A stretch of DNA of 64,000 bases from Candidatus Uhrbacteria bacterium (GTDB taxonomy: Bacteria; Patescibacteriota; Patescibacteriia; UBA9934), in contig CAWGHH010000004.1 in the NCBI GenBank assembly GCA_963822405.1, forward strand, positions 70,226 through 134,225, read 5' to 3'. The position numbers and the translations under genes were made by a program. Numbering within the stretch: position 1 is the stretch's first letter; each line of letters begins with the position of its first letter. The notes under the pieces were generated by a model. The model did no database searches. It had not been told where the DNA came from and worked only from the letters and a program-made list of their open reading frames with translations. Below, in pieces: positions 19,443 through 58,646 of this stretch.

Positions 19443-19470
19443 ATTAGGCCAAGTATAGCAAACTCTGAGT

Positions 19471-22261: not shown

Positions 22262-24574
22262 ACCTTCCCAGATGCCACCGGTACAATCGCGCTGACCTCT
22301 GATCTCACATCTTCCGGCGGTTGGACAGATGGCGGAACGGACGTGCTCTTAACGACCTCGACGGATAACGTCGGCATAGGTGGCGCTTCTCTCGGCAAGT
22401 TATCAGTTGATGGCGACACTGACGAAATCCAACTCCTCATCCAAGGCAACGGAACGCAAACATCTAATCTCGCTGTCTTCGAAAATAGTTCCGGAACTGA
22501 TCTCGTGACCATCTCCAATACTGGACTACTCACTTCAAACTCATGGTCAGACAACACAAACACCATTTCTACATTTGGCGGGCGAACAACTTTTAGAAAA
22601 GCTTCGGCCGGAGTTACAGAATTTGTAGTTAGTCCGAGTGGATCACAAGCATATGACACTGCTGTGTTGAAAATTTCCGGCAGTGACTATGGCGCAGACC
22701 AAACAAACAATTGGGGTATGCTGTTTGATAACTTTGGCTCAAACGGAGCTACCGGATTCACTCTTTCAAACATGGCCAATGCCGGATTATTAACAATGTC
22801 TAATAGCGGAAGTACAACAGGCTATCATGACTTCGTTCTTGGTATTCAAAATGGAACAGGTGCCGAGTCAGCAGTAGTAGAAGGCATTCGTCTTGATTCA
22901 GCGGCTACACCAGCAGTAGACTTTTTCGTCGACAAAGTCATCATCACCTCTGGCACGGGAAACATTTCAACAACTGGTGACATCGCGGTAAACGGCGGAG
23001 ATGTAACCTCGACCAGCACTTTGAACCTAACATCAGCAACCTCAAGTGCGATCACCCTTGATTCTGGTACGACAGGTACGATCAACATCGGTACTGGAGC
23101 CTCCGGCAAGTCGATCAACATCGGCACGGACAACAGCAACGCCGATACGATTGGAATTGGTTCGGCTTTAGATACTTTGAGTATTGCCGCTACCACTTTT
23201 ACTACAACACTCACCACAACGAGCAGCGCCGCTTTTGCATCATCGACTACAAACAGTGACGTTATCGCCATTAAACCACAATCCGGCACAGCTACCACAA
23301 CCTATACTGGAACGATCACTTCAGCTGATCTTACAGCTGCCCGAACCTGGACATTGCCAGATGCCACCGGAACAATCGCGCTTACATCCGACATCGCTGG
23401 AGCCTTTGGCTGGACGGATGGCGGAACAGATGTAACGCTCACAACCTCTACAGATAATGTCGGAATCGGTGGCGCGTCACTCGGCAAACTATCAGTTGAC
23501 GGTGACACGGACGAGATCCAATTGTTAGTCCAAGGCAACGGAACGCAAACTTCTAATCTCGCTGTCTTCGAGAATAGTTCCGGCACGGATCTTGTCACCA
23601 TCTCAAATGCCGGCTTGCTCACCTCGAACTCATGGTCAGACAATACAAACACCATTTCTACTTTCGGTGGTCGCACAACCTTCAGAAAAGCTTCAGCTGG
23701 AGTAACGGAGTTTGTAGTCAGCCCAAGCGGAACACAGAGCTGGGACACTGCGGTACTAAAAATATCTGGAAGTGACTATGGCGCAGATCAAACAAACCAA
23801 TGGGGAATGCTTTTTGATAACTTCGGCTCAAGTGGAGCTGGTGGTTTTAGCCTTACCAACATGGCTTATGCGGGATTATTAACCATGTCCAACAGCGGAG
23901 GCACCACCGGCTACCATGACTTGGTCTTTGGTGTGCAAAATGGAACCGGCGCTGAGTCGGCAGTAGTCGAAGGCATCCGTCTTGATTCAGCGGCCACACC
24001 AGCCGTAAATTTCTTCGTCGATAAAGTCATCATCACTTCTGGTACAGGAGACATTTCAACTACTGGCGACATCGCAGTGAATGGAGGCGACGTGACATCA
24101 ACCGGCGCGCTCAATGTGACGTCTGCCACTTCGAACGCCTTGACACTCGATTCCGGCACGACGGGTACGGTCAATATCGGCACAGGAACTTCCGGTAAAA
24201 CAATCAACATCGGCACGAGCAACTCTAACGCTGACACCATCGCAATCGGTTCTGCGCTTGATACTCTCTCAATTTCTTCCTCTGCCTTTGCAGTCTCTAC
24301 CGCGGGCGTTGCCTCTGGACTCACCGGGCTTACCTCAACGGGAAACCTCACCTTCACCGGTGCAAATATTACTGGCGCTTCCCCACTTGTATTTGATGGG
24401 GCCACCGCTGATGCCGTGAAAACAACTTTTGCAATTACAGATCCAATACTCATCAGCAAAATCATAACGTTCCCTAACGCAACAGGCACCGTTGCTCTAA
24501 CGTCAGACTTAGCGATTGCTGGCGGTTCGAGCCGACGGCGGAACAGACATAACGCTCACAACCTCAACCGATAA
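22262..24574 (+). CDS. Giant surface protein, middle segment (same frame as 21749..22261)
   Basis: Continuous homology to tandem ~385-aa modules. Ends through a 1-nt frameshift near 24528. Confidence 0.65.
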   Translation, partial: TFPDATGTIALTSDLTSSGGWTDGGTDVLLTTSTDNVGIGGASLGKLSVDGDTDEIQLLIQGNGTQTSNLAVFENSSGTDLVTISNTGLLTSNSWSDNTNTISTFGGRTTFRKASAGVTEFVVSPSGSQAYDTAVLKISGSDYGADQTNNWGMLFDNFGSNGATGFTLSNMANAGLLTMSNSGSTTGYHDFVLGIQNGTGAESAVVEGIRLDSAATPAVDFFVDKVIITSGTGNISTTGDIAVNGGDVTSTSTLNLTSATSSAITLDSGTTGTINIGTGASGKSINIGTDNSNADTIGIGSALDTLSIAATTFTTTLTTTSSAAFASSTTNSDVIAIKPQSGTATTTYTGTITSADLTAARTWTLPDATGTIALTSDIAGAFGWTDGGTDVTLTTSTDNVGIGGASLGKLSVDGDTDEIQLLVQGNGTQTSNLAVFENSSGTDLVTISNAGLLTSNSWSDNTNTISTFGGRTTFRKASAGVTEFVVSPSGTQSWDTAVLKISGSDYGADQTNQWGMLFDNFGSSGAGGFSLTNMAYAGLLTMSNSGGTTGYHDLVFGVQNGTGAESAVVEGIRLDSAATPAVNFFVDKVIITSGTGDISTTGDIAVNGGDVTSTGALNVTSATSNALTLDSGTTGTVNIGTGTSGKTINIGTSNSNADTIAIGSALDTLSISSSAFAVSTAGVASGLTGLTSTGNLTFTGANITGASPLVFDGATADAVKTTFAITDPILISKIITFPNATGTVALTSDLAIAGGSSRRRNRHNAHNLNR

Positions 24575-25560
24575 CGTCGGGATCGGTGGCGCATCACTTG
24601 GCAAGTTATCCGTCGACGGCGACACTGACGAAATTCAATTGTTGATCCAAGGAAATGCCACCCAAACCTCTAACCTGGCGGTTTTCGAAACAAGCGCGGG
24701 CACTGACCTCTTTGCGATTTCAGGAGCGGGTGAATTAACACAAACCTACACCGGCGCAGGCAACGCATCTTCCATCACGTCCACCACTACTACCAATGGA
24801 TCTAAAGGCTTAATAGTATCAAATACTGGCGTTGTAACAGGGAGGGGTTACGCGGGATTCTTCTCTAAAACTGGAGCATCCACAACCAACGTTGGTCTTT
24901 ATGCCTCCGCCTCCGGGGCAACAGATAATTACGCGGCCATTTTTGACTCTGGGTACGTAGGAATCGGGACCACAAGTCCTATTGCAAAATTGAACATTCA
25001 GGGTTGGTGGGCTCAAACCCTAATGGACGGCGATAGCCTTGCCATAAGAAAACCAAACTACGCCGGTGGCGGATGGGCCAGAACTTTGATGGACTTCCAA
25101 GAATATGACGGCTCAACTCTAACAAGCATGGGAGCATTTGGCTCAAATAATACATTCGTTTACGGATATATTGGAGCTGCGTACAATGACACTACTTTCC
25201 AATGGTACCCAGATAAAAGCGTAGCCTTCAACGGTAGCGTCGGTATCGGCGACACCAGTCCGGCTGCCGCTTTCGTGGTTGGCAACGGAGACCTGTTCCA
25301 AGTAACTTCCGCCGGAATCATTGCCGCCGCCACCGGGATCACTTCAACGGGTAACGTCAACTTCACTGGAGCAATTCTTACCGGCGCTTCGCCGCTCTCT
25401 TTTGACGGTGCAACGGCAGGTGGCATCAAAACGATTTTTGCCATTACCGATCCTACCGTTGCAGATAAAACAATCACCTTCCCAAATGCCACCGGTACTG
25501 TTGCTCTGACTTCCGACCTAGCAATTGCCGGTGGTTGGACAGATGGCGGAACTGACGTAA
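22270..25560 (+). repeat. Three tandem ~1.1 kb near-identical coding modules within the giant surface gene
   Basis: Modules beginning WTDGGTDVTLTTSTDNVGIGGASLGKLSVDGDTDEIQLL recur at ~22320, ~23420 and ~25540 with high DNA identity. Confidence 0.75.
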
Positions 25561-28500
25561 CTCTCACAACCTCAACCGACAACGTCGGAGTAGGTGGTGC
25601 GTCGCTCGGCAAGCTATCAGTGGATGGTGATACTGATGAAATTCAATTTTTGGTACAAGGAAACGCGACTCAAAATGCGAACCTAGCTGTTTTTGAAAAT
25701 AGTTCAGGCACAGATCTAGTTACCATCGACAGCCTGGGAGCAATCGCTCAAACATACGCCGGCACTGCGTCAACCGCCACCACTATCTCCATGACCAACC
25801 TTACTTACGGCAGCGGACTACTAGTCATCGGAAGTGGAGCGGCGATGCAAAGTGGAGGGAATCTATTAAACCTCTCCATGGGTGCAGCCACCCAAGGACA
25901 GGCAATATCTATTGCCACTACCGGTATCTACACAGATACCTCTGGAGTCATAAACATGTTTGCAGGCTCTCTCACAAGTGGCATAGCAGAAAATATCGAA
26001 ATCAGCGGACTCACAACAGGCACAGGAATTAACGTTACTGGCGGCTACTCAATGGCGACTGGAAGCGAACTGTTAAATCTCAACATGGGCGCGGCAACTG
26101 CCGGAAACGGAGCTATCGTTACTACAACTGGCATCTATACAGGAACTGGACTTGCGACGCTCACCGCCAACTCCGCCACGACCGGCACGGGCGAAGCCAT
26201 CTCCATGACAGGTGTTACAACCGGTACCGGCCTTTCTATCACCGGCGGTTCGAGCATGACGACCAACGGCGAGTTGCTTGATCTCACAATGGGAACTGCC
26301 GCAGCTGGCAATGCGATCAATATTACCTCAACTGGAGTCTATACCGGCACTGGCATCATAAAAGCAAATGCTAACATCCTTACCTCGGGAACGCTCCTTG
26401 CCCTTTCTTCACCTAGTTCCGCTCAGTCCACAGCAATATTTCTTGACCTAGCTCAAACGGGGGTAACAACTGGTTTCAGTGGAAATCTAATCAATCTATC
26501 CTCTACCGCAACGACCGGTGCAGCAAAATTCATAAACTTAACAGCCGACTCTTCCACCGTCGGAATTGGAGAAAACATTTCCATGACCGGCCTCACCACA
26601 GGCACCGGTCTTTCTATTACCGGCGGATCAAGCATGACGGCTAATGGAGAACTCATCTACCTAAACACGAGCACAGCTGCTACCGGAAGCGCGATCAACA
26701 TAGACAACGCCGGAACTTACACCGGCACCGGTCTCATAGATCTCTCTGCAACCGGAATGACCACCGGTACCGGACTTGCCATCACCGCGGGTGGATTACT
26801 AGGCACCGGCGGAAGACTCACGGAACTTGACATGGGGACATCGACAGCTGGTAACGCGATCAATATAGACGCTATATCAAATTGGTATGAAGGCACCGGT
26901 CTGATAGCAATGACTGCCCCCTATTTAGATCAGGGCACGGCACTCTCCATAAACTCCGGCACAGTAGGTGACAATATGGCCGATGCTGGAGAACTAATTG
27001 ACCTCCAATTAGGTCCAAGCAGTATTGGACACGGAATAAAAATAACTGATAGTGGCGCATATACAGGAACTGGTCTTATCCTGATAACGGCCAACGGACT
27101 CACTACAGGTAAAGTCATCAACATTCCGCACACCACATCCGTCATTGCGTCCGGTGGTTCATTAATTAATCTTTCATCTACATCCATTGACACCGCTACA
27201 ACATCCGGCTCCCTTCTTAACCTATCCTCCACTGCATCTACAGCCGGCACACAATTCTTACAAACATATTCCGGACTGACCACTGGCATCGGACAAAGCA
27301 TAGTCAGCAACGCACTCACCTCCGGCAAACTTCTTTCATTAGCTTCCTCTTCAACAGGTCAAACAAGCGGAACTTTTCTTGATATCGCTCAAACTGGCGT
27401 TACAACAGGCTATACAGGAAACCTCCTGAACATCAGTTCCTCTAGCACGACGGGTGCTGCAAAATTCTTAAATATCCTCGCCGATGCGTCAACTGTGGGC
27501 ACCGGGATTGAACTCTCAATGGATGCGCTCACCACCGGAAAAGGAATCAACATAACCTCAACGAGCGCAGGACAAACATCAGCCAGTCTTCTGAATATCG
27601 CTCAAACCGGCGTAACTACTGGCTTCACGGGCAGCTTAGTCAACATCAGCTCGTCATCTACCACTGGCGCTGGATCAAAGTTTTTAAACATCGTTGCCGA
27701 TGCGTCAACAGTAGGTACAGGCATAAACCTCTCAATGGCGGCAATGACTTCTGGAGTTGGAATCTCCATCACCGGGAGCGGAGCGAGTATGTCAACTGGA
27801 AAACTAATCGATCTTCAACTGGGGGCCAATACTACAGGCAATGGCCTAGCCATAGTATCATCAGGTGCGTATTCCGGAGCAGGAATTATTTCGATCACCG
27901 CTGATAGCGCTACAAATGGGACAGGAGTTTATATATCGATGACCGGAAGAACGGGAGGTCAGGCACTCGCCATAATAGGAGGTACGGGTATGGCGAATGG
28001 TACATACTTAGCTAATCTTGACCTGGGCGCCGCAACAGCAGGGGCAGGGTTTATTGCACAAACTTCAGGAGCATACACAGGCACCGGACTTGGAATCATT
28101 TCAGCGCCGAACGCAACATCAGGAGAAATGCTCTTAATTTCCAGCAGCGGTCTCACCTCATCTGGACATGCTATTAGCATAGTTTCTGGATCGACCAGCG
28201 GAGGCATCATCATTGCAGGAAACGGCAATACTGCAACATCTATTGACGCGGATGGGCAGGTCAGAATTGGATTCTCTACAACGACTAGCTCTGTAGCGGT
28301 CTGTTCGACGCTCGGTGCCGGAGCCGCTCCGGTCTCCGGAACATCATATTTCCTTCGAGATTGTGCCGGAACAATCACCGCTGACTATGCTGAAATGTAC
28401 CCAGTAGAAACTGGAATTGAGTATGGAGATATTTTAACCACCGGCACAACTCCAATCAGCGTATACGCAGCACTCCCAGACGGTAGTGGCCTAGACCCGA

Positions 28501-30284
28501 CTAACGCTATCGGTAGCGTAACCTCCTTAGTAAAATCTGTCAGCGAATACCAAGCAAACATAATCGGCATCGCCTCAGATAACCACGGCGATTTCTCGAG
28601 TGCCGGTTACAACGTAATGGATGCCGATAACCCCATGCCCGTCGCCCTTAACGGTCGCGTCCCAGTCAAGATTGCGAACACCTCCGCCCCAATCGTCGCC
28701 GGCGACTACATCACCACCTCAAGTGAAGCTGGCAAAGGCATGAAAGCTACACTGTCCGGCGTTGTTATCGGTAAAGCACTCGAATCATGGATCCCTGACA
28801 ACGGCCAAGCGACCGTCATGGTTTTCGTCGAGCAGGGATACAGTACCGGCTCCGGAACCGACCTCGCAGAAATGTATTACTCGACAGATGAAACTATCGC
28901 GAAGGGCGACCTCGTTCGCATTGACGACAACATTCACGCCGGCGTAGCAAAAACAAACGGTACTTACGACGGAACTATCCTCGGCATTGTCGCTAGCCGA
29001 CCAGGTCTCGTGCTTCACGATCCAAAAGAAGCACATGAAGGCACAGCAGTACTCGTTGCTCTTGTTGGTCGAGTGCCTGTCAAAGTAACTACCGCTAACG
29101 GAGATGTTCATGCTGGCGACCTACTTACTTCCTCAGCTATTCCAGGAGTAGCCATGAAAGCTACCGCCGGCGGTCGAGTGATTGGTCAGGCGCTCTCTTC
29201 ATACACAGACGCCGGTGAAGGAATAGTGCAGGTATTTATTAATAATTCTTACGCCCCGACAGAAGTCTTTGCGCAGATAAATGCAGGTGCTTCAGTCACT
29301 AATCCAACTGTCGATCCAGTTGCCCCGGCATTCGTCACCACTGCCGATTTCGCTACAGCTCTCAATGAGATGAACAGTAGTTTGAACGCGCACGTTGCAA
29401 ACGAGCTTATCATCACGGACGCTCTCTCGGCTGGTGTATCTGGTCTTAATGATCGAGTCACCACCCTCGAAACCACCGTTTCCGCCAATGTTTCTGCACT
29501 TGCGGACGTTTCGACCCGTTTAATTGCGCTAGAACAAAATAGCCTAAGCCTTACTAGCCTGAATTTGCCTGGCGCCTTAGAAGTTACTGGTACCACAAAA
29601 CTCACCGGCGGATTACAGGTTGATTCGATAAGTTCTATCGGTTCTTCGATCAACTTCGCATCCGACATCAATCTCATCGGTCGCCCACTCTTTAATAAGG
29701 ACACAGGTGGCTTTGCGATTATCCACACCGGCGACACGTTCGTTCGCGTCACGTTTGAAAAGCCTTATGTCACTACGCCGGTTGTCGATGCATCCGTGAC
29801 TTTCAATGCTATCACTGATGAAATCGTGGCCGCGCAAGCTGAAGCTGATTATTTCGCGAGCGGAATGCACCTCATCGTAACCAGAAAAGACGTAACGGGA
29901 TTCACCATCATGTTGAATGCCCCGGCAACTACAGACCTGTCGTTCAACTGGATCGCGCTTGCCATTACGGATGCGAGAACGGATGAGTCGGTAGGGTCGA
30001 CGCTTGGGTCGACCCCGACACCGGTTGTTGCTGGCGCTACTGATCCTGCGCCTATTGATCCGACACCAATCCCAGATCCAACTCCGGTAGTTGATCCAGC
30101 ACCAATCATTGATCCCGTTCCCGTCGATCCAACACCTGTCGTAGACCCAACCCCAATCATCGATCCAGCCCCAATCGTTGACCCCGCTCCGATCGATCCA
30201 GTATTGGTCGACCCAATACCTGCCCCTATCGATCCGGCTCCGATTATTGATCCCGTGCCAGTCGATCCAGCCCCTGTAATCTAA
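24516..30284 (+). CDS. Giant surface protein, main segment (1922 aa)
   Basis: Continues the module WTDGGTDVTLTTSTDNVG exactly where the previous frame breaks. C-terminal DPxPI(I/V)DP repeats. Family A repeat in-frame at 29993-30020. Confidence 0.7.
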   Translation: MLAVRADGGTDITLTTSTDNVGIGGASLGKLSVDGDTDEIQLLIQGNATQTSNLAVFETSAGTDLFAISGAGELTQTYTGAGNASSITSTTTTNGSKGLIVSNTGVVTGRGYAGFFSKTGASTTNVGLYASASGATDNYAAIFDSGYVGIGTTSPIAKLNIQGWWAQTLMDGDSLAIRKPNYAGGGWARTLMDFQEYDGSTLTSMGAFGSNNTFVYGYIGAAYNDTTFQWYPDKSVAFNGSVGIGDTSPAAAFVVGNGDLFQVTSAGIIAAATGITSTGNVNFTGAILTGASPLSFDGATAGGIKTIFAITDPTVADKTITFPNATGTVALTSDLAIAGGWTDGGTDVTLTTSTDNVGVGGASLGKLSVDGDTDEIQFLVQGNATQNANLAVFENSSGTDLVTIDSLGAIAQTYAGTASTATTISMTNLTYGSGLLVIGSGAAMQSGGNLLNLSMGAATQGQAISIATTGIYTDTSGVINMFAGSLTSGIAENIEISGLTTGTGINVTGGYSMATGSELLNLNMGAATAGNGAIVTTTGIYTGTGLATLTANSATTGTGEAISMTGVTTGTGLSITGGSSMTTNGELLDLTMGTAAAGNAINITSTGVYTGTGIIKANANILTSGTLLALSSPSSAQSTAIFLDLAQTGVTTGFSGNLINLSSTATTGAAKFINLTADSSTVGIGENISMTGLTTGTGLSITGGSSMTANGELIYLNTSTAATGSAINIDNAGTYTGTGLIDLSATGMTTGTGLAITAGGLLGTGGRLTELDMGTSTAGNAINIDAISNWYEGTGLIAMTAPYLDQGTALSINSGTVGDNMADAGELIDLQLGPSSIGHGIKITDSGAYTGTGLILITANGLTTGKVINIPHTTSVIASGGSLINLSSTSIDTATTSGSLLNLSSTASTAGTQFLQTYSGLTTGIGQSIVSNALTSGKLLSLASSSTGQTSGTFLDIAQTGVTTGYTGNLLNISSSSTTGAAKFLNILADASTVGTGIELSMDALTTGKGINITSTSAGQTSASLLNIAQTGVTTGFTGSLVNISSSSTTGAGSKFLNIVADASTVGTGINLSMAAMTSGVGISITGSGASMSTGKLIDLQLGANTTGNGLAIVSSGAYSGAGIISITADSATNGTGVYISMTGRTGGQALAIIGGTGMANGTYLANLDLGAATAGAGFIAQTSGAYTGTGLGIISAPNATSGEMLLISSSGLTSSGHAISIVSGSTSGGIIIAGNGNTATSIDADGQVRIGFSTTTSSVAVCSTLGAGAAPVSGTSYFLRDCAGTITADYAEMYPVETGIEYGDILTTGTTPISVYAALPDGSGLDPTNAIGSVTSLVKSVSEYQANIIGIASDNHGDFSSAGYNVMDADNPMPVALNGRVPVKIANTSAPIVAGDYITTSSEAGKGMKATLSGVVIGKALESWIPDNGQATVMVFVEQGYSTGSGTDLAEMYYSTDETIAKGDLVRIDDNIHAGVAKTNGTYDGTILGIVASRPGLVLHDPKEAHEGTAVLVALVGRVPVKVTTANGDVHAGDLLTSSAIPGVAMKATAGGRVIGQALSSYTDAGEGIVQVFINNSYAPTEVFAQINAGASVTNPTVDPVAPAFVTTADFATALNEMNSSLNAHVANELIITDALSAGVSGLNDRVTTLETTVSANVSALADVSTRLIALEQNSLSLTSLNLPGALEVTGTTKLTGGLQVDSISSIGSSINFASDINLIGRPLFNKDTGGFAIIHTGDTFVRVTFEKPYVTTPVVDASVTFNAITDEIVAAQAEADYFASGMHLIVTRKDVTGFTIMLNAPATTDLSFNWIALAITDARTDESVGSTLGSTPTPVVAGATDPAPIDPTPIPDPTPVVDPAPIIDPVPVDPTPVVDPTPIIDPAPIVDPAPIDPVLVDPIPAPIDPAPIIDPVPVDPAPVI
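29993..30020. repeat. Family A element inside giant surface gene, in-frame (encodes GSTLGSTPTP)
   Basis: GGGTCGACgcttGGGTCGACCCC. Confidence 0.8.
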
Positions 30285-30307: not shown

Positions 30308-30814
30308 GTGGTAGCATTATGCAGTATGAAAACAATTTCAAAGGCTAAGCCTGACTCTATGAACAAACTCACGGTCATCGGTCTCCTTATATTTGCCCTG
30401 GCATCCGTAGGCGGAAACGTTTTTCTTGGAGTGAAGTATTTCTCCGCACCAAAAGTAATCAGCGTGCTTGATGAAAATCAAAAAATTATTGCTGACGTGG
30501 GTAAACTCATGGAACTACCAACTGACGAGTTGCCGACTGTAGCTAAAGTCGACGATCCGCAGCAACTCATAGATCAAGGCGTGTTCACTAAAGTTCAAAA
30601 AGATGACACGGTGCTTATTTATCCAAAAGCTAAGCGAGCTATTCTTTACCGCCCAAGCACCAATAAAATTATCGAGGTGGCCACCGTGAATATCACTGAT
30701 ACACCACCAGCGGCTACGAACGGGTCGACGCTTGGGTCGACCCCAACGCCAACGACGCCACCGGCTCCCGCGCCAATCCCGGCACCTGCCCCAACACCCA
30801 CCCCTACGCCGTAG
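30308..30814 (+). CDS. Membrane-anchored protein, paralog of the N-terminal domain of 47241..47933
   Basis: TM helix, then LPTDE…ILYRPSTNKIIEVATVNIT aligning to the LPTDE…ILYRPSTDQIIQVASINVS domain of 47241..47933. Pro/Thr-rich tail. Family A repeat in-frame. Confidence 0.6.
   Translation: MVALCSMKTISKAKPDSMNKLTVIGLLIFALASVGGNVFLGVKYFSAPKVISVLDENQKIIADVGKLMELPTDELPTVAKVDDPQQLIDQGVFTKVQKDDTVLIYPKAKRAILYRPSTNKIIEVATVNITDTPPAATNGSTLGSTPTPTTPPAPAPIPAPAPTPTPTP
30719..30748. repeat. Family A element inside 30308..30814, in-frame (encodes GSTLGSTPTP)
   Basis: Identical 23-nt core to the copy at 29993. Confidence 0.8.
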
Positions 30815-30823
30815 GCCCTTCTG

Positions 30824-31831
30824 GTGTACGGGCTTGGCGCCGCCAAGCCCTTACGTATGATTACATCCAAACCAATCATTCTCTACGCGGCATTGATAGG
30901 CCTTCTTTTTGGCATGCCTTTTCAAGCGCTCGCCGGCACTCTCTCTTGCTCGGTAACAACCTCATGCCCAACGGGCACTGTGCTTTACCGCCTTTATGAT
31001 CCGAACGGCAATCACGCCGAGATGCCCAGCCAATCACTCTATACATATATGGTGTGCTGCACCGGCGTCGCTGGCCTGGGCAATAGCTGTGCTACTGGCG
31101 TGAACGCAGTTGTCGTCAAACTTTCGAGCACAACAAATGCACACATAGAACAAAACTCCCAGTCCAACTATTCCGGTAATGACGCCTGCTTATCAGTCGA
31201 TGCTGGTGGCTCGGTCTCGGTTGGTTATCAAGCCACTAATTGCAGCGGCTACGATACAACCATTGGCTCAATGACAGCGGTAACCAATAGCCACGTTGGG
31301 GATGGCGCCGCCTATGCCGTCAAAATCTGCGCGACCGCCCTACCGCCACAGACATTAACCTTCAACGTCTCAGATAACACGATCGGATTCGGAACACTTT
31401 CCGCAATTGTTCCCAGGTATGCAACGGGAGACGCCCAAGGGTCAGGCGCGGAAGTAGAAGCGCATACCTTAGCGATCAGTACATCAGCAGCAAACGGCTA
31501 CACGCTCACAATTAGAGGCACAACTCTTGCGGACGGTGGGAATGTCATAACCCCGATAGGCGGAACTAACACAGCCCCAATCCCCGGGTCAGAACAGTTC
31601 GGCTTAAGGCTAGTGGCAACTGGTGGATCAGGTACGGTAACTTCCCTGTATGGAGCTTCAGGATTTGCTTTCAATGCCACTGACTCTACTACCATCCAAG
31701 TAGCCACAGAGAATCCTGGAGATGAAGTGACCACCACATACTCAGCACGCTATCTTGCAAACATTACAAACACCACACAACCTGGAAGTTACGCAGCCAC
31801 ACTCACCTATATAGTAACGGGATCATTTTAA
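30824..31831 (+). CDS. Secreted Cys-rich beta-protein, paralog of 31945..33075
   Basis: Signal peptide. Shared C-terminal domain TLTFNVSDNTIGFGTL … YxxTLxYIxTGxF. Confidence 0.6.
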   Translation: MYGLGAAKPLRMITSKPIILYAALIGLLFGMPFQALAGTLSCSVTTSCPTGTVLYRLYDPNGNHAEMPSQSLYTYMVCCTGVAGLGNSCATGVNAVVVKLSSTTNAHIEQNSQSNYSGNDACLSVDAGGSVSVGYQATNCSGYDTTIGSMTAVTNSHVGDGAAYAVKICATALPPQTLTFNVSDNTIGFGTLSAIVPRYATGDAQGSGAEVEAHTLAISTSAANGYTLTIRGTTLADGGNVITPIGGTNTAPIPGSEQFGLRLVATGGSGTVTSLYGASGFAFNATDSTTIQVATENPGDEVTTTYSARYLANITNTTQPGSYAATLTYIVTGSF

Positions 31832-31944: not shown

Positions 31945-33075
31945 ATGCGCACACCGTCATTTAAAAAAAGTTTTAGGTCTGGTGTCAGCCTTATAGTGGC
32001 GACTACCGCCATGATCGCCGGACCGCTTCTCCAGATTGGCGCACTTACTCAATACGCACACGCCGCTACCCTCACCACAATGTCAGATACCATGACTGAT
32101 CAGGCTCCATCAGCAGAATCAACCCATACGATCAAATGGACAACGGCCGGCCAAAACGTAACCGGAGACACTGTGATTATTGATTTCGTTGCGGCAGACT
32201 TCGTTCCCTCGGGAACATGGGCTACTACGGACTTCGCCCTTACTGACATTGGCGGGGGTCGCACAGCTACCGCTCCTGTATCTGTTGGCACTTACCTAAT
32301 CCCAGGAACATGTTCCTCCGGCGCAACTAATTATATTGTTGATGTTGATGCCACGAGCGGTTCATTCCGCATCACATTTTGTGCCGGCTGGACCGCAAGC
32401 ACGGCCGCTAACCTAACCACCTTCGTGATCGATGCCGATGCTCTGGCGACCGGCGGTATCATGACAAACAGTGCATCGAACGTTGAATCATCAGTAGTGA
32501 ACATTGCCTACGCTACTTCCAACTCAGACAGTGGTATGTTGGCCATCGTCGTTGAATCACTGGCAAACGTAAACATCACTGCCACGGCTGCCGTTGGACC
32601 AACACTCACTTTTAACGTCAGCGACAACACAATTGGCTTTGGAACGCTAAGTTCAGTGGCCGCTAGATACGCTTCGCCTGATACGCTTGGAAGTGCCCTC
32701 TCCACAACCGTCGCGCACACATTCTACGTTGATACTAACGCGACCGGCGGATATATTGTCACATTCAAAGGGGCTACACTAACATCCGGTGGTAACACCA
32801 TCACTGCGATCGGCAGTTCGAACACCGCATCCACCCCAGGAACAGAACAGTTCGGACTGCGGGCTACGGTAGCCAGCGGTAGCGGAACAGTAACGGCTCC
32901 GTATGCAGCGGCTGGATTTGCCTTCACGGCAGGTACCACACAACCAGTAGCGTCATACACCGGAGTTGATGCAGGCACTACTTTTAACGCCATTTATCTG
33001 GCCAACATCACCGGTGCCACGGAAGCCGGTGCTTACTCAACAACCTTGAAATACATTGCTACCGGAACTTTTTAA
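31945..33075 (+). CDS. Secreted beta-protein, paralog of 30824..31831
   Basis: Signal peptide. Same C-terminal domain as the 30824..31831 gene. Confidence 0.6.
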   Translation: MRTPSFKKSFRSGVSLIVATTAMIAGPLLQIGALTQYAHAATLTTMSDTMTDQAPSAESTHTIKWTTAGQNVTGDTVIIDFVAADFVPSGTWATTDFALTDIGGGRTATAPVSVGTYLIPGTCSSGATNYIVDVDATSGSFRITFCAGWTASTAANLTTFVIDADALATGGIMTNSASNVESSVVNIAYATSNSDSGMLAIVVESLANVNITATAAVGPTLTFNVSDNTIGFGTLSSVAARYASPDTLGSALSTTVAHTFYVDTNATGGYIVTFKGATLTSGGNTITAIGSSNTASTPGTEQFGLRATVASGSGTVTAPYAAAGFAFTAGTTQPVASYTGVDAGTTFNAIYLANITGATEAGAYSTTLKYIATGTF

Positions 33076-33184: not shown

Positions 33185-34177
33185 ATGAAATACCTGTCTC
33201 TCAGCTTTCTCGGTGCGTTACTCGGCCTCTGTCTGTCAGTACAAAGCGCATTCGCAATTACCGTATCTCCAGTGAAAATAGAGGTGTCTGGGGATCCTGG
33301 ACATGCAGTTACCGGAGAACTAGAGCTGTTCAACGGCGAAAAAAATGCCGTAACTCTCTACTCATCTTTTGAAAAATTTGAAGCCCAAGGAGAAACCGGC
33401 AACCCTGTCTTCACCCCCGGAACGGAAGATCTTAGTACGTGGATTCAAGTCACTCCCAGTATCACTCTCCAGCCGATGGACCGAGTAAAGCTCCCCTTCC
33501 GTATCACCATCCCGGCTGACGCCACCCCAGGCGGACACTTTGCAGCAATATTCTGGAATAATGCGCCACCAACTGACTTACAGAATAGCGAGGTGAGAGT
33601 CGGTTCTAAAATTGGCATATTAGTCTTACTGAAAGTTTCCGGGGAAGTAACTGAATCTGGTAATTTCATTGGATTTGGCACTGAAAATGATCAAACATTT
33701 TTCACCTCGCCTCCAGTAAATTTCTGGTATCGATTTCAAAATGCCGGTTCAGATCGGGTGAAACCAACTGGAACTATTCTTATCAAGAATACTTTCGGCC
33801 TAAAGGCTACTGAATTCAACGCTAACCCAACAGATGGCAACGTGCTACCGCAAAGCATTCGTCGATTAACAGCTTCGTGGCTAGAAAAAGATCACTGGGA
33901 TAATGTAGTAAAAATACCAGACGATAAAAGCTTTCTATCGCTCGCGTCCTACGAATTACAGCATTTTCATTTCGGTCGCTTTACCGCCCACCTCAATCTT
34001 GAGTATGGCACCGAAGGAAAGATAGCTTACGCAAAAGTCTCTTTCCTGATGATTCCATGGCATGCGCTCATCATAGTCATTCCCACGCTCTTCATCATCT
34101 TTATTCTTGGTATAATCTTCTTGAAGCGGTATAACCGTTGGATTATTCGCCAAGCAAATGCGAAAACGCAGGGTTAA
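33185..34177 (+). CDS. DUF916 (CscA)-like cell-surface protein with C-terminal TM anchor
   Basis: Signal peptide MKYLSLSFLGALLGLCLSVQSAFA. ITVSPVKIEVS…LPFRITIPADATPGGHFAAIFW pattern resembling DUF916. C-terminal hydrophobic helix plus basic tail. Confidence 0.5.
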   Translation: MKYLSLSFLGALLGLCLSVQSAFAITVSPVKIEVSGDPGHAVTGELELFNGEKNAVTLYSSFEKFEAQGETGNPVFTPGTEDLSTWIQVTPSITLQPMDRVKLPFRITIPADATPGGHFAAIFWNNAPPTDLQNSEVRVGSKIGILVLLKVSGEVTESGNFIGFGTENDQTFFTSPPVNFWYRFQNAGSDRVKPTGTILIKNTFGLKATEFNANPTDGNVLPQSIRRLTASWLEKDHWDNVVKIPDDKSFLSLASYELQHFHFGRFTAHLNLEYGTEGKIAYAKVSFLMIPWHALIIVIPTLFIIFILGIIFLKRYNRWIIRQANAKTQG

Positions 34178-35228
34178 TCACAAGCATAAAGGACTTCTCG
34201 TCATCGCTCTCGCCGCCTTATTATTAGCGGCGGGAGTTTGGCATCTTGTCGAGTTAACCCGCGCTGATCCACCACCAGTCGAAATAGATGTCACAATTTC
34301 AACTATGGTTCTTGGCTGCGGCGACGGCATAGTCGAGCTAGGCGAAGATTGTGACGGAACAGAGATGAACGGACACACCTGCGCAACAGAGGGCTTCTTA
34401 TACGGCTCTATCAGCTGTCAGGCTAGTTGCGTAGTCCAAACCTCAGCCTGCACTATGGCCACACCAAGTGGAGGAGGTTCTACACCAGTCGTCCCGGTCT
34501 CCTCGACCAAAGAAATATTTACGGGTTACGCATCTCCGGAAAGTACCGTAAACATCTTTAAAGATGGTATTGTCGTCGCTACCGTTACAACAGATGCAAC
34601 CGGAGTATTTTTCGCCCAAATCAATAATGTGACAAATGGTAATTACATATTCGGTTTTCTAGCGACTGATGCTTCCGGCAACGCTTCTGCCTTTTCTACC
34701 CTAAATATTACGGCCAGTGGAGGAATTGCTACGAATGTAGATATGCTACTTTCGCCAATAATGGTTCCGATGATATCGCCTGGGACAACCGGAAATTCAG
34801 TCATGATGTCAGGCAGTACCGCTCCCAATGCTAGTGTAAAAGTATCGCTGTATTCACCGCTAGGAATATCGCTATCGAATCAGACCGTGTCAGCCGATGA
34901 CCAGGGGCTCTACATGGCAATGTTCGATGCATCTTTGTTAACTACGGATGGAGTCTATACAGATATTGATCAAGCATCACTGGGCACACTAACTAGCGAC
35001 TTCAGTCTCCCTGGCCTATTTACCGTTGGTGCCCCTGTCCCTCTCTACATGCCCGGTGACTATGACGAAAACTTGAGAGTAAATTTGGTCGACTTTTCGA
35101 TTGCCATGTACTGGTACAAATGGCCACTAACCGACGCTTTCAAAATTCTTGAACTTCGACACGGCAATGGAGACGGTCTCTTGAACTTGATCGACATCAG
35201 CATTATGGCTTACTGGTGGACTGGATAA
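34158..35228 (+). CDS. Secreted protein with C-terminal dockerin-like repeat pair
   Basis: N-terminal TM/signal. C-terminus has two EF-hand-like dockerin repeats (DENLRVNLVDFSIAMYWY / GNGDGLLNLIDISIMAYWW). Confidence 0.5.
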   Translation: MRKRRVNHKHKGLLVIALAALLLAAGVWHLVELTRADPPPVEIDVTISTMVLGCGDGIVELGEDCDGTEMNGHTCATEGFLYGSISCQASCVVQTSACTMATPSGGGSTPVVPVSSTKEIFTGYASPESTVNIFKDGIVVATVTTDATGVFFAQINNVTNGNYIFGFLATDASGNASAFSTLNITASGGIATNVDMLLSPIMVPMISPGTTGNSVMMSGSTAPNASVKVSLYSPLGISLSNQTVSADDQGLYMAMFDASLLTTDGVYTDIDQASLGTLTSDFSLPGLFTVGAPVPLYMPGDYDENLRVNLVDFSIAMYWYKWPLTDAFKILELRHGNGDGLLNLIDISIMAYWWTG

Positions 35229-35232
35229 TTCT

Positions 35233-36141
35233 ATGCACTCCCCTGCAAAAAAAATTATCGTCATCATCGTTTCACTCACCGCTCTTCTGGCGCCGCATTT
35301 ACTTTTCGCTGCCCAGGTTACCGTATTGCCGGGAAGTAAAGCGGTCATTCAAACGGCCGAATTTCAAACTGACGTCACAATCGATACTAATGGCGAATCA
35401 ATTAATGTCTTTTCGGGAAAAATTGTTTTTCCGAGTGATATTGTCGAACTAAAAGAAATTCGAAGTGGCAACTCAATAGTAAATTATTGGGTCGAGGAAC
35501 CAAAAAATGTGAACGGCGAAATCGCCTTCGCCGGCATGACGCCTGGAGGCTACAACGGCAATCACGGGGTAATCTTTTCACTCATCTTCACCGCTACTGC
35601 CCAAGGTCAAGGGAGTATAGTCGTTAAAGACCCACTGTTCCTAAAGAACGACGGCAAAGGAACCTCGGCTAACATCAATATCAGCAATTCGATCCTCACC
35701 GTTCTTGCGCCAGACCAAAGACGGAACATCGTCGTCCCGCCAATTACTGATACAACGCCACCTGAACTCTTCGCCCCGGAAATTTCACGCTCCCCGTCAA
35801 TCTTAAACAATGCTTGGCTACTATTCTTCAGCGCGCAAGACAAAGGATCTGGCATTGGTCACTATGAAATTCAAGAATATCAAAACGGCCTATTCAGCTT
35901 CTTCGCCCCATGGCAGATAGCGTCAAGCCCGTACTTGCTCAAAGATCAATCGGCCAGCAGCCAACTCAATGTTCGTGCAATAGATAAATCGGGAAACATT
36001 CGCACCGTTCATGTCTCGCCCCTTCATGCGCCGGTTTGGTACCTCAATATAATAAATTGGTTCGTTGTTATTGGTATACTGGCGCTGATCGTTACCCTGA
36101 AAACGGTACTATGGCGAAAGCGTGGAAAAATTTCCTCTTAG
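35233..36141 (+). CDS. Cohesin-like domain protein with C-terminal membrane anchor
   Basis: Signal peptide, QVTVLPGSKAVIQTAEFQTDVTIDTNG… cohesin-like beta-sandwich pattern, C-terminal TM helix plus KR tail. Confidence 0.45.
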   Translation: MHSPAKKIIVIIVSLTALLAPHLLFAAQVTVLPGSKAVIQTAEFQTDVTIDTNGESINVFSGKIVFPSDIVELKEIRSGNSIVNYWVEEPKNVNGEIAFAGMTPGGYNGNHGVIFSLIFTATAQGQGSIVVKDPLFLKNDGKGTSANINISNSILTVLAPDQRRNIVVPPITDTTPPELFAPEISRSPSILNNAWLLFFSAQDKGSGIGHYEIQEYQNGLFSFFAPWQIASSPYLLKDQSASSQLNVRAIDKSGNIRTVHVSPLHAPVWYLNIINWFVVIGILALIVTLKTVLWRKRGKISS

Positions 36142-37238
36142 GTTTTACCGCGCTCTTATTTTTCTTGCTCGGCACGTTACCGAATACTAGCCAAGCAGCT
36201 GGCTTCTTGTTTTCGCCGTCATCCGGCACAGGAACTGTCGGCGTTCCGCTAACTGTTACCGCAATCCTGAACACAAACGGCGTCATTGCGAACGCGGCTG
36301 ATGCGTCTATTTCATTTCCGCCTAGCTTACTGAATGTTTCTTCTGTTTCAAAAACTGGCTCCGTCATGGCGCTCTGGATCCTCGATCCTACGTTCTCCAA
36401 CAGCACCGGAGAAATCACTTTCACCGGTGGCACGCCTCGTCCTGGTTTCAGCGGCTCATCGCTCACTCTCGCTACCATCACCTTTATCCCAAAGGCCGCA
36501 GGAACAGCCACCATCTCTTTCACGGGAGTATCCGTCTTATCAGGCGACGGCCTAGCAACTGAGCTCTTAAACAGCCTCGGATCCGCAACATTCGTGATCA
36601 ACGCTGCGCCACCTCCCCCGCCACCACCTCCGCCGGTAGTCGTAGTCCCGCCACCAGCACCACCGCCAGTAATCATTTACGTTCCAGTTCCAGCAGTAAC
36701 TCCGCCAGCTCCGCCACCAGCTCCCCCAGCCCCACCTCCAGAACCCGTAGTCTGTCCACCAACGGGCACGGGCTATGTGCCACCGTCGACAATACCGACC
36801 GAACCACCGATTGCTCCAATAGAAATACCCGCCCCACCTACAGTGGCCGAGTTAGTAAATCTTGTTCCAACCTCAATCCCAGAACTAATTACTACGCCCG
36901 CGCAAATTTCGGCTTCATTTGATAGCGCAGCCACGGCCATGAGCAACATAGTCGGTAAAACAATAACTAGGTTCCTACAACCGGCACCGGTTGCACCAAT
37001 CGTGGACAAACAAGGCAACCTCCAATGTCCAGCCGCCTCAGCTATCACTATAACTCCCCCATCAGATGGTGGTTGGTTAGCATATCTTATTGCCGGACTC
37101 GCCGGTATCATCATCGGCTACCTCCTCAGAGAGTTGATCGAAAAGAAAAAGAAACGCAAAGAGCTTAAAGCCAAACCTACTCAGCCAAAAATCGTTCCGC
37201 CTCCAAAGCCGCCATACATCCCGTTCCCGCCGCGGTAA
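36111..37238 (+). CDS. Cohesin-like domain surface protein with proline-rich stalk and C-terminal TM anchor
   Basis: Start MAKAWKNF. Signal peptide, TVGVPLTVTAILNTNGVIANAADASISF domain, poly-Pro linker, TM helix + KKKKRKELK tail. Confidence 0.5.
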   Translation: MAKAWKNFLLGFTALLFFLLGTLPNTSQAAGFLFSPSSGTGTVGVPLTVTAILNTNGVIANAADASISFPPSLLNVSSVSKTGSVMALWILDPTFSNSTGEITFTGGTPRPGFSGSSLTLATITFIPKAAGTATISFTGVSVLSGDGLATELLNSLGSATFVINAAPPPPPPPPPVVVVPPPAPPPVIIYVPVPAVTPPAPPPAPPAPPPEPVVCPPTGTGYVPPSTIPTEPPIAPIEIPAPPTVAELVNLVPTSIPELITTPAQISASFDSAATAMSNIVGKTITRFLQPAPVAPIVDKQGNLQCPAASAITITPPSDGGWLAYLIAGLAGIIIGYLLRELIEKKKKRKELKAKPTQPKIVPPPKPPYIPFPPR

Positions 37239-38097
37239 TCGCTTGACGGTAGTGCGGATCCATAACATCCCCACAAGCAAACACGCCGGGGATGTTTGTT
37301 TTTGTAGATTTGCCTTCCGTCACAATATAGCCCTTTTGGTCGAGGGTGATCGAATTCGTGAATAATTCAGTATTCGGCTTGTGACCAATCGCGACAAATA
37401 ATCCTTGAGTCGCAAACTCGCTCATCTCACCCGTCTTCGTGTTCTTCAGTTTTAATGCACGAATACTTGCATCGCCGAGTACTTCTTCGACCGTCGAATC
37501 CATCAAAAATGAAATCTTCGGATTATTCTTCGCGCGGTCAAGCATGATTTTCGAGGCTCTAAAAGATTCGCTCCGGTGAATAATCGTAATCTTGCTCGCA
37601 AACCGGGACAAAAAGTTAGCCTCTTCCATAGCGCTGTCTCCCCCGCCAACTACGACAATTTCTTTACCGCGGAAAAAGAATCCGTCACATGTTGCACACG
37701 CAGAAACACCCTTGCCCTGGAATTCTTTTTCGCCAACACAACCAATCCACTTCGCACTCGCGCCCGTCGAAATAATGATCGAGTCCGTGGTTATTTCTTT
37801 GCCGTTTTCGCTCTTGATGGCATATGGCCTGGTCGAAAAGTCCACCGAGGTGACAACATCTTGAAAAACTTCTGTTCCAAATTTCTCCGCCTGCTTCTTC
37901 AGCTTGTCCATGAGCTCGACGCCCAAAACTCCGTTTGGTTCCCCCGGCCAGTTCTCAACTTCACTCGTCAGCATTAATTGTCCCCCGGGTTCGCGCCCCG
38001 CAAACAACACCGGCTTCAACATGGCTCGCGCCGCATAAATCGCCGCCGTGTAACCAGCAGGTCCCGAACCAATGATAACAAGAGAGTGGTGATTCAT
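37177..38097 (-). CDS. trxB: Thioredoxin reductase
   Basis: GSGPAGYTAAIYAAR FAD-binding, CATCDG redox-active disulfide, GGGDSAMEEA NADPH-binding. Confidence 0.9.
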   Translation of the reverse strand: MNHHSLVIIGSGPAGYTAAIYAARAMLKPVLFAGREPGGQLMLTSEVENWPGEPNGVLGVELMDKLKKQAEKFGTEVFQDVVTSVDFSTRPYAIKSENGKEITTDSIIISTGASAKWIGCVGEKEFQGKGVSACATCDGFFFRGKEIVVVGGGDSAMEEANFLSRFASKITIIHRSESFRASKIMLDRAKNNPKISFLMDSTVEEVLGDASIRALKLKNTKTGEMSEFATQGLFVAIGHKPNTELFTNSITLDQKGYIVTEGKSTKTNIPGVFACGDVMDPHYRQAITAAGTGCMAALEAERFLAE

Positions 38098-38210
38098 AGT
38101 TGCCAAAGTCTAGCACGCCCTCCTCGAACAACAAACTACAAAATACACACACCTCAAAACTAAACCGCCCCAGGTCATTAAGACCCGAGGCGGAGGACGA
38201 GAGAGAACGA

Positions 38211-39086
38211 TCAGCCGGTCATGAGCGACCAGGCGTAGAGGCTGGACGGGTGATCCTGGTAGTCCCAATTGATCATGGCACCGTAGATGCCTTCCCGCGG
38301 ACCGGCCAGGATAAAGCCGGTAACGGTGCGGAAGTCGTTGGAGCCAGGATAGAACCCGCGGAACCACGTACGGCTGTCGGAGTCGGTCTGCAGCGCGACC
38401 AAGCGGAGCTTGATCTCAGCTCCACCCTGGTACGGAAACACTTCCCGCACATCTTCGAGCTTCTCGCGCCGGATGACGGACAAACGCTCTTTGTGAGGTA
38501 CCCGGCTGGTCTGAAGCGCACAGTTCGGAAGTGTAATCGCCGGTTGCCCGGTGATGTAGTGGAGCGAACACGTGTTGTTCGCGAGAGATCCTCGCTGGTC
38601 GAACGGCGTGCTGATCACCTCCTTCCCCGGACCGTTGCGCTGGGCAGGAACGAGAGCATCCCAGGCATAGTCGATCGGCGGTTCTCCCCGATGATCCCAC
38701 ACTGTCACTACGCCATACGGGTACGCCTGCTCCTTCTTCAGGTAGAGAAACCCGCTCACCAGGTTGCGCTGTTCGCTGTAGGACGTGTAGCCCTCAAAGT
38801 GCACCACACCCGCTACTCGGTTCACGCGCACCTTCGTGATGTGCGCGTTGAGCACGGTCCACTGGAAGTCAAACCGTCTCGGCTCCACGGAAGAACGCGT
38901 CATGGGATTCGTGTAGCGCTCCATCTGCGGCGCTGTTGCATGGCGCATGTGCGCAAGGTTGAGGTCAAAGCTCAGCCGCTCCGACACTCCGTCAACATTA
39001 CCGATGAGGGCGAGGAACTCCGCGAAATTCTCCACCGTACGAATAACAGACACACACCCAGCAGCCCGATCAAGAACCTGTGACAT
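38211..39086 (-). CDS. Hypothetical protein (291 aa) in a GC-rich island inserted between trxB and trxA
   Basis: GGAGGT 4 nt upstream of ATG 39084-39086. Elevated GC. Own terminator-like hairpin at 38150-38190. Overlapping plus-strand ORF is Arg-rich and antisense-like. Confidence 0.5.
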   Translation of the reverse strand: MSQVLDRAAGCVSVIRTVENFAEFLALIGNVDGVSERLSFDLNLAHMRHATAPQMERYTNPMTRSSVEPRRFDFQWTVLNAHITKVRVNRVAGVVHFEGYTSYSEQRNLVSGFLYLKKEQAYPYGVVTVWDHRGEPPIDYAWDALVPAQRNGPGKEVISTPFDQRGSLANNTCSLHYITGQPAITLPNCALQTSRVPHKERLSVIRREKLEDVREVFPYQGGAEIKLRLVALQTDSDSRTWFRGFYPGSNDFRTVTGFILAGPREGIYGAMINWDYQDHPSSLYAWSLMTG

Positions 39087-39147
39087 GAAACCTCCAACAG
39101 TGAACGTGAACCGTGGCATTAGATATGAAAAAGTAGTTTTCGTCAAC

Positions 39148-39172
39148 CAAAAACGCCCCTTTCGGGGCGCCA
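39148..39172 (-). terminator. Rho-independent terminator of trxA
   Basis: GGCGCCCCgaaaGGGGCGtt followed by TTTTT on the minus strand. Confidence 0.65.
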
Positions 39173-39184
39173 TTGGCAATCAAA

Positions 39185-39496
39185 CTAACCAATAATCTGC
39201 TTAACTCTTTCCTTGAATGTTTCTTTGCTCATCGCTCCAGAGAATCTGCCAACTTCGCTTCCGCCCTTCATAACTACGAAGGTAGGAATCGACAAGACAT
39301 TGAAACGCATGGCCAGCTCCTGAGCATCATCTACGTTTACTTTAGCGAATGATACTTCAGTCATCTCGTTGCTCAGCTCCTCGATCATTGGGCCCATCAA
39401 GCGACACGGTCCGCACCAAGTAGCCCAGAAGTCGACAACTACAGGAGTTGTAGATTGAGTGATCTGTGAATCGAAGTTTGCGGTTGTAAGATCCAT
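39185..39496 (-). CDS. trxA: Thioredoxin
   Basis: WATWCGPCR active site. Confidence 0.95.
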   Translation of the reverse strand: MDLTTANFDSQITQSTTPVVVDFWATWCGPCRLMGPMIEELSNEMTEVSFAKVNVDDAQELAMRFNVLSIPTFVVMKGGSEVGRFSGAMSKETFKERVKQIIG

Positions 39497-58391: not shown

Positions 58392-58467
58392 TGGTGCACC
58401 GGGCGGGACTCGAACCCGCGACCAAGAGATTAAGAGTCTCCTGCTCTACCAACTGAGCTACCGATGC
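58392..58467 (-). tRNA. tRNA-Lys (anticodon CTT)
   Basis: Cloverleaf folded by hand: acceptor GCATCGG/CCGGTGC, D-arm GCTC-AGTTGGTA-GAGC, anticodon loop CTCTTAA, T-arm GCGGG-TTCGAGT-CCCGC, encoded CCA. Confidence 0.85.
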
Positions 58468-58569: not shown

Positions 58570-58646
58570 GTGGTGTTAGCTCAGCTGGATAGAGCATCTG
58601 CCTTCGAAGCAGAGGGTCGGGGGTTCAAATCCCTCACACCACACCA
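58570..58646 (+). tRNA. tRNA-Arg (anticodon TCG)
   Basis: Acceptor GTGGTGT/ACACCAC, D-arm GCTC-AGCTGGATA-GAGC, anticodon loop CTTCGAA, 5-nt variable loop, T-arm GGGGG-TTCAAAT-CCCTC, encoded CCA. Confidence 0.85.

Follow-up and report, generated by a model that had tools for sequence, protein, structure and literature searches.

Cohesins and dockerins form pairs in cellulosomes, and such pairs also occur in scattered proteins outside cellulosomes, where their role is mostly unknown. In Clostridium thermocellum the type II cohesins of the anchoring scaffoldins SdbA and OlpB bind the X-dockerin of CipA. In chaperone-usher pili, PapH donates a strand and cannot accept one, and so ends polymerisation at the cell-proximal end. 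The Pam pili described in Candidatus Mycosynbacter amalyticus are built from pilins in which a linker strand between the N and C domains is donated to the C domain of a neighbour; assembly is aided by PapD-like chaperones anchored by a transmembrane (TM) helix, and PamR, an RbmA-like protein with an N-terminal strand, two fibronectin type III (FnIII) domains and a TM helix, has been proposed to terminate and anchor the filament (preprint 10.64898/2026.03.03.709456, of 2026, the single source on these pili). The preprint mentions neither cohesin nor dockerin, and our literature search found no paper linking either module to pili of the candidate phyla radiation (CPR). The fixation of Pam pili to a cell without usher, sortase or outer membrane is still a model. 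Here we describe three genes, A, B and C, in a stretch of 64,000 nucleotides from Candidatus Uhrbacteria bacterium (contig CAWGHH010000004.1, positions 70,226 to 134,225), which we call the window. Co-directional and tightly packed, the three close a long cluster on the + strand in which a giant fibre protein is followed by a small TM protein, a pair of pilins, a chaperone-like protein with a TM anchor and then A, B and C (Table 1). We propose, with a probability of about 45%, that they form a dedicated non-cellulosomal cohesin-dockerin tether that ends a Pam-type pilus operon, with A as a PamR-like base adaptor. The safest reading is that of a dedicated non-cellulosomal cohesin-dockerin pair holding a secreted immunoglobulin (Ig)-domain protein on TM-anchored sockets, in a CPR surface-appendage operon. 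The analysis shows the domain identities, the topology elements, the operon context and the conservation; that the modules bind, that the signal peptide is cleaved, that the donor strand inserts and that A acts as a terminator is inferred from these.

The tail of A is a dockerin, in agreement with a first-pass annotation of this DNA which had noticed two dockerin-type repeats at its end; this is clear at the level of the family, the window copy alone being weak (PDB dockerin 5nrm_B at E 0.33 in a phmmer search). Thirty-six relatives of A were found at E<=1e-3, several with precomputed matches to Pfam Dockerin_1 (PF00404), and 16 of 17 orthologous tails match that family individually (best E 4.3e-9). 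A profile of the 17 tails matches solved type I dockerins over both repeats in six entries (E 2.4e-5 to 4e-3), among them 5nrm_B (E 2.4e-5), 2y3n_B (1e-4), 4fl4 and 1daq. In an AlphaFold2 (AF2) model of A made from 34 sequences, with a mean predicted local distance difference test score (pLDDT) of 83.9, the helices 310-318, 326-335 and 344-355 show the three-helix dockerin layout at a pLDDT of about 90. A Foldseek search with full-length A was dominated by tandem Ig matches and returned no separate structural match for the dockerin fold. In the family alignment the dockerin tail is the best-conserved part of A, and L310, D312, F313, S314, W319, L344, D346, S348, I349, A351, W354, T355 and G356 are invariant among 22 full-length relatives. 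The calcium-binding pattern that had been read in both repeats holds fully for the first, which has Asp or Asn at all five of the loop positions 1, 3, 5, 9 and 12, and for four of the five positions in the second, where H335 occupies position 1. This His is kept in the close clade of the window, and relatives with the same longer inter-repeat linker have Lys, Phe or Arg in its place.

The two TM-anchored proteins encoded directly after A had been likened to cohesins, and the predicted structures bear this out for B, and for C through its homology to B. The AF2 model of B (pLDDT 91.5) folds residues 27-158 into a strand-rich domain and residues 183-261 into another beta domain, and ends with a helix formed by residues 271-300. 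The first of these has the nine-stranded beta-sandwich (jelly-roll) fold of cohesins: the top 29 Foldseek matches of B in the PDB are almost all cohesins, with E down to 3.4e-9, TM-scores of 0.74-0.80, a root-mean-square deviation (rmsd) of 2.6 A and a probability of 1.00. The top match is 2w1n, a double module of cohesin and FN3 from Clostridium perfringens (E 3.4e-9); another is the Archaeoglobus fulgidus cohesin 2xdh, which is non-cellulosomal (TM-score 0.79, rmsd 2.6 A). In sequence searches Pfam Cohesin (PF00963) was matched by five of 27 B relatives (best E 8.5e-5), and a B profile matched the Ruminococcus flavefaciens cohesin 5aoz at E 0.0065; phmmer searches of B and C against the PDB gave nothing useful. 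The N-domain of C is homologous to the B cohesin (BLASTP E 3e-10; hidden Markov model, HMM, of the B domain E 7.7e-22), and six of eight C orthologues match Pfam Cohesin (best E 1.5e-7). Both proteins have a single cohesin and no carbohydrate-binding module (CBM), begin with a signal-like segment and carry at the C-terminus a hydrophobic helix and, behind it, a basic tail; the cohesin is therefore the membrane-distal module. In the window C continues with a poly-proline stalk (PPPPPPPPPP...) at about 36600-37070, residues ~165-320, and has a short Lys/Pro-rich cytoplasmic tail. Among its orthologues in loci L003-L006 and L016 of the comparison set, most have 570-595 amino acids (aa), extra Ig-like domains and, past the TM helix, a conserved, charged, helical-looking tail (...RELTEEE...KEIxDIE).

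The trio is conserved well beyond the window. In a first set of seven contigs with A relatives, which reach down to 30-34% identity to the A of the window, A, B and C follow the chaperone-like gene in the same order throughout, and BLASTP recognises every orthologue group. HMMs of the dockerin tail and of the B cohesin detect a single dockerin and two cohesins, no more and no fewer, across the 64-kb window, and the same numbers in each of these loci. A wider scan with a dockerin-tail alignment, taking one representative genome per species, confirmed dockerin tails at at least 581 loci. Of these loci 80 were kept, 76 of them with enough downstream sequence. Nearly all titles of the 80 name CPR lineages (among them Uhr-, Magasanik-, Nomura-, Falkow-, Komeili-, Niyogi- and Zambryskibacteria, Paceibacterota, Candidatus Microsyncoccus archaeolyticus), and a few automatically labelled metagenome-assembled genomes carry other names. 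A cohesin open reading frame (ORF) starts no more than 800 nt downstream of the dockerin gene in 73 of the 76 loci, and the dockerin gene is followed by two cohesin genes in 35 loci and by three in 14. A search of cluster representatives with an A profile was swamped by giant repeat proteins and tells no more than that full-length representatives of about 350 aa number in the dozens, each standing for a 50%-identity cluster.

From this strict gene adjacency we infer that the dockerin of A binds the cohesin of B, of C or of both. It could be argued that the two modules are not mutual partners, the dockerin being a calcium-binding structural cap and the cohesins binding the cell wall, an S-layer or a host surface. 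Many non-cellulosomal cohesins and dockerins are reportedly orphans of unknown partner, the window dockerin is divergent, with no Asp at position 1 of loop 2, and the B cohesin falls short of the Pfam model entirely, all of which counts for such a separation. We give it a slim chance, because the two genes have stayed adjacent despite deep sequence divergence, because conservation within A peaks in the dockerin helices, and because A would have no other means of retention once its signal peptide is cleaved. The setting is non-cellulosomal, as the first-pass annotation had supposed for a small-genome bacterium, here of the CPR/Patescibacteria: there is no enzyme, no CBM and a single dockerin in 64 kb, and a cellulosome-like enzyme scaffold is ruled out on these grounds. 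The generic surface scaffold also suggested there finds no support. Besides its dockerin A has a Cys-rich module and a pair of Ig-like domains, with no enzyme, catalytic or cargo domain found by Pfam, AF2 or Foldseek; each locus has one dockerin and two, sometimes three, single-cohesin proteins; and the trio is the fixed end of a Pam-type pilus/fibre operon. With one dockerin, no cargo and a fixed position, the set looks like a dedicated tether for one ligand, and the conserved trio suggests a plug-and-socket anchor for a surface appendage.

The link to a pilus comes from the genes upstream and from the N-terminus of A. Both pilins of the cluster match the NCBIfam model NF058581 (CPR_Pam_pilin_C, cutoff 55 bits) of the Pam pilin C domain, a truncated Ig domain that accepts the donor strand, the first with 66.4 bits (E 2.8e-18) and the second with 76.2 bits (E 2.8e-21). 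Behind a predicted signal peptide, for which AF2 shows a helix at residues 9-34 and where all orthologues have small residues before the strand, A carries the putative donor strand EIDVTISTMVLG. Residues 36-52 are conserved, yet have a pLDDT below 50 and are unpaired in the AF2 monomer. The pattern V-x-[VI]-x-A-x-V is common to the A strand and the pilin linker strand in every locus compared; the pairs, pilin first, are NVNITATAAV and DVTISTMVL in the window, DVVVTATVN and TVTVTATVL in L001, and NVTVTATVT and GVTIKAFVP in HR35. When a position-specific scoring matrix built from the pilin linkers of other loci was scored on the 32,125 nine-mers of the window ORFs, the A strands of L001 and L004 exceeded all of them. 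No Pam pilin C domain was found in A with NCBIfam. The Cys-rich module of A gives weak TIGR02232 matches in 12 of 34 family members, the Ig-like region matches Pfam Big_6 (E 7e-9), and Foldseek finds tandem Ig/FnIII adhesins, including RbmA (4be5, E 8e-6). We also considered B alone as the PamR equivalent; this was ruled out, its N-terminal strand being an integral and confidently modelled part of the cohesin sandwich.

The chaperone-like protein gives a weak match to WxL-interacting protein 1 (WxLIP1) of Enterococcus faecium (PDB 9i25, E 0.0018), and four of seven members of its family match Pfam WxLIP_PGBD. This likeness hints at a kinship of the Pam operons of CPR bacteria with the loci that encode WxL surface proteins in Gram-positive bacteria.

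The wider set of loci falls into two classes. Where a chaperone-like gene is detected upstream, the dockerin protein is a short A of 310-400 aa (24 of 24 loci), with the N-terminal strand recognisable in most. Where none is, 34 of 37 loci have a long A' of 430-495 aa with a different N-module and an FN3 domain. An example of this second class is L016 (4786-6180), and about 34 other loci belong to it (e.g. L010, L014, L029 and L032). Its N-module has three SSNYxL-like repeats ending in AGFLYFP, followed by the FN3 domain. One assembly, ERP119705_co3_578, carries both classes (L038 and L063). The N-module of the dockerin protein thus tracks the pilus genes, and the dockerin-cohesin part is constant.

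These classes also bear on whether A is instead an independent surface adhesin or spacer that is displayed by docking to B and C, having its operon in common with other appendage genes without being a pilus subunit. The main argument for this is the second class itself, in which a dockerin protein and two or three cohesin proteins stand with no pilin or chaperone gene detected upstream, and the closest structural matches of A are indeed repetitive Ig adhesins. Some loci, such as L012 (6196-9084) and L026 (2033-4573), have an extra ORF of about 850-960 aa ending in the same dockerin type, beside the standard dockerin gene. The cohesin sockets there may therefore serve more than one ligand, and a second, larger dockerin protein would fit a small display scaffold. 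We nevertheless consider an independent adhesin unlikely. It leaves unexplained both the conserved unstructured N-strand that mimics a pilin linker and the near-perfect association of the short A with the chaperone-like gene, and even the N-module of the second class aligns with the N-terminal ~100 positions of PamT, a pilus model in NCBIfam (E 3e-9 to 9e-8).

A further question is raised by the giant protein at the head of the cluster, which appears in the sequence as a pair of overlapping ORFs. In a tblastn comparison the same 2059-aa gene of L001 is matched by the two, the frame changing near 24510-24560, and they are probably a single gene of ~2,650 aa with a frameshift, either real or a sequencing error. 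The protein carries repeated units (TTSTDNVGIGGASLGKLSVDGDTDEIQ...), and its equivalent in L016 has the Pfam domain Peptidase_S74, a tail-fibre chaperone domain. A 'tail fibre-like protein' adjoining pam operons has been noted (10.64898/2026.03.03.709456). The cassette might then anchor this fibre in place of a pilus, A or A' binding the fibre and docking onto B and C. In both locus classes the cassette comes after the genes of the giant protein and the small TM protein, homologues of the latter lying at the same position in L001, L002, L007 and the second-class locus L016, and the giant protein has a signal peptide (in L001), a Pro/Thr-rich C-terminus and no obvious membrane anchor. However, no feature pointing to a fibre was found in A, and in the first class the pilins and the chaperone-like gene sit exactly between the fibre genes and A, whose N-module changes with them. 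In L003 (4799-8263), L020 (3-3395), L042 (2-2092) and L084 (172-2949), large proteins encoded ahead of the pilins have a Pam pilin C domain at their end and resemble tip adhesins to which the acceptor domain of a pilin has been joined. The large upstream protein would there be a pilus tip subunit, which merges the fibre explanation with that of a pilus anchor. As a separate explanation we regard the fibre tether as improbable.

We therefore return to the tether at the end of a pilus operon, for which anatomy, synteny and motif similarity suggest the following mechanism. A would be exported by Sec and its signal peptide removed, and its C-terminal dockerin would plug into the membrane-distal cohesin of B, of C or of both. 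B and C would be type I membrane proteins held by their C-terminal TM helices, so that A would be fixed non-covalently to the cell surface. The free N-strand of A would fill the C-terminal Ig domain that the last pilin leaves open and, because A has no acceptor domain, it would cap the base of the pilus and anchor the filament. A together with B and C would then amount to a split PamR, in which the TM helix has been exchanged for a dockerin and outsourced to the cohesin proteins. In its broadest form, which we hold more tentatively, the proposal is that cohesin-dockerin docking anchors Pam-type pili or fibres to the cytoplasmic membrane in a large part of the CPR, in hundreds of Parcubacteria/Paceibacteria-type species, with the dockerin protein as a strand-donating terminator and the cohesin proteins as membrane sockets.

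Several observations weigh against the pilus tether. On the side of the docking modules, A of the window has no PF00404 match at E<=1, and the second calcium site may be weak because loop 2 begins with His and not Asp. More generally, the full-length window proteins gave no dockerin match in Pfam or NCBIfam. B has no match to Pfam Cohesin, and C remains below threshold (23.2 bits for the isolated domain, E 8.5e-5, against a gathering score of 24.1), and the modules were identified through their families. On the side of the strand, DVTISTMVL of the window scores 12.4 with the pilin-linker matrix, at about the top 0.2% of window nine-mers, and strands rich in Thr, Ser and Val are frequent among surface proteins. 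The h-region of A, 19 residues long, might stay uncleaved and serve as an anchor. The identification of the gene before A as a membrane-anchored Pam chaperone of the PapD/FimC kind (PamC or PamD) is that of a candidate, based on position and topology; NCBIfam gave no Pam-specific match for this protein, nor for A or B of the window's class. Finally, the absence of detectable pilin and chaperone genes upstream in second-class loci means that the cassette is not strictly tied to adjacent pilus genes.

Table 1. Coordinates of the genes, protein modules and RNA genes discussed (positions in the window)
Feature	Position	Strand	Remarks
Giant surface fibre protein	22343-30284	+	read as overlapping ORFs 22343-24574 and 24516-30284
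Small membrane protein	30359-30814	+	N-terminal anchor (hydrophobic segment), Pro-rich tail; kept upstream of cassette
Pam-type pilin 1	30824-31831	+	Cys-containing N-domain, then Pam pilin C domain
Pam-type pilin 2	31945-33075	+	linker (donor) strand NVNITATAAV directly before C domain
Chaperone-like two-domain protein (PamC/PamD candidate)	33185-34177	+	330 aa; signal peptide; C-terminal TM helix, residues 295-313
Protein A	34158-35228	+	356 aa; predicted secreted dockerin-bearing adaptor
A, signal peptide	34158-34265	+	residues 1-36; h-region 13-31; probable predicted cleavage after LTRA
A, N-terminal strand (putative donor strand)	34266-34313	+	residues 37-52; family consensus xVTVTAxVLG
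A, Cys-rich module	34314-34457	+	residues 53-100; CGDG...ExCDG...C...C...C...C; Cys invariant in family alignment
A, two tandem Ig/FnIII-like domains	34497-35033	+	residues 114-292; AF2 strands span 116-290
A, dockerin module	35049-35225	+	residues 298-356; two Ca-loop/helix repeats and linker helix
A, Ca loop 1	35058-35093	+	D301-Y-D303-E-N305-L-R-V-N309-L-V-D312; EF-hand-like
A, Ca loop 2	35160-35195	+	H335-G-N337-G-D339-G-L-L-N343-L-I-D346; EF-hand-like
Protein B	35233-36141	+	302 aa; start 4 nt past A stop; signal peptide, basic tail
B, cohesin	35311-35712	+	
B, FN3-like domain	35743-36018	+	
B, TM helix	36043-36111	+	
Protein C	36111-37238	+	375 aa from ATG 36111; 31 nt overlap with B; signal peptide, poly-proline stalk, Lys/Pro-rich cytoplasmic tail
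C, cohesin	36183-36635	+	
C, TM helix	37071-37127	+	
tRNA gene	58395-58467	-	Rfam; divergent from the next; these two are the only Rfam matches in the window
tRNA gene	58570-58643	+	Rfam

The start of C was placed at the ATG of Table 1, a TTG at 36036 being less likely. Elsewhere in the window, about 1 kb at 38100-39180, between trxB (37177-38106, - strand) and a thioredoxin gene (39185-39496, - strand), holds long overlapping ORFs on both strands (327 aa on +, 322 aa on -) that have no PDB or Rfam match; the syntenic spot of L001 has only a 147-aa gene. Two very large ORFs on the - strand, 15480-19760 (1426 aa) and 49418-55591 (2057 aa), presumably encode further surface proteins.

If correct in its broadest form, our reading would give a non-cellulosomal cohesin-dockerin pair its first defined physiological role in the assembly of an appendage. 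The conserved set of one dockerin protein and two or three cohesin proteins offers a concrete anchoring mechanism for Pam-type pili, gives a function to three genes so far called 'hypothetical' that hundreds of CPR species carry, and extends Pam-type operons to Parcubacteria-type lineages. It may also furnish surface display with a cohesin-dockerin pair that is minimal and orthogonal by nature. The combination of one dockerin and two or three cohesins as the terminal module of a Pam-type operon, apparently in place of the TM helix of PamR, did not turn up in the literature that was searched.

Set side by side with PamR by description, A is similar in having a free N-strand and two Ig-like domains and in following pilins and a chaperone-like gene. 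It differs in that PamR has its own C-terminal TM helix; such a terminator was not found here, A ending in a dockerin and the TM helices lying on the separate cohesin proteins. Like PapH, A has a donor-like strand and lacks an acceptor, here the Pam pilin C domain. PapH, however, has a pilin fold and sits in an outer-membrane usher, whereas A has another fold, belongs to a cell that has neither usher nor outer membrane, and would be retained through cohesin-dockerin docking.

The docking modules have their own counterparts. The non-cellulosomal pairs of A. fulgidus (2xdh) and of C. perfringens GH84C (2w1n) use the same two folds outside plant-cell-wall degradation; they are the best structural matches of B, and 2w1n has the layout of B, a cohesin followed by FN3, although the sequence similarity of the window modules to known cohesin and dockerin families is marginal. 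Unlike those systems, the dockerin protein here has no enzyme or toxin, and the cohesins are single copies on TM-anchored proteins that are a fixed operon partner of CPR pilus genes. Compared with the cellulosome, a CBM, enzyme-borne dockerins and a scaffoldin with several cohesins are all missing, a TM helix provides the anchor where cellulosome scaffoldins use S-layer homology (SLH) domains or sortase, and one dockerin is matched to two or three cohesin proteins. With SdbA and OlpB the set would share the principle that a cell-bound cohesin captures the C-terminal dockerin of a secreted protein of several domains, by which an extracellular assembly is held on the cell.

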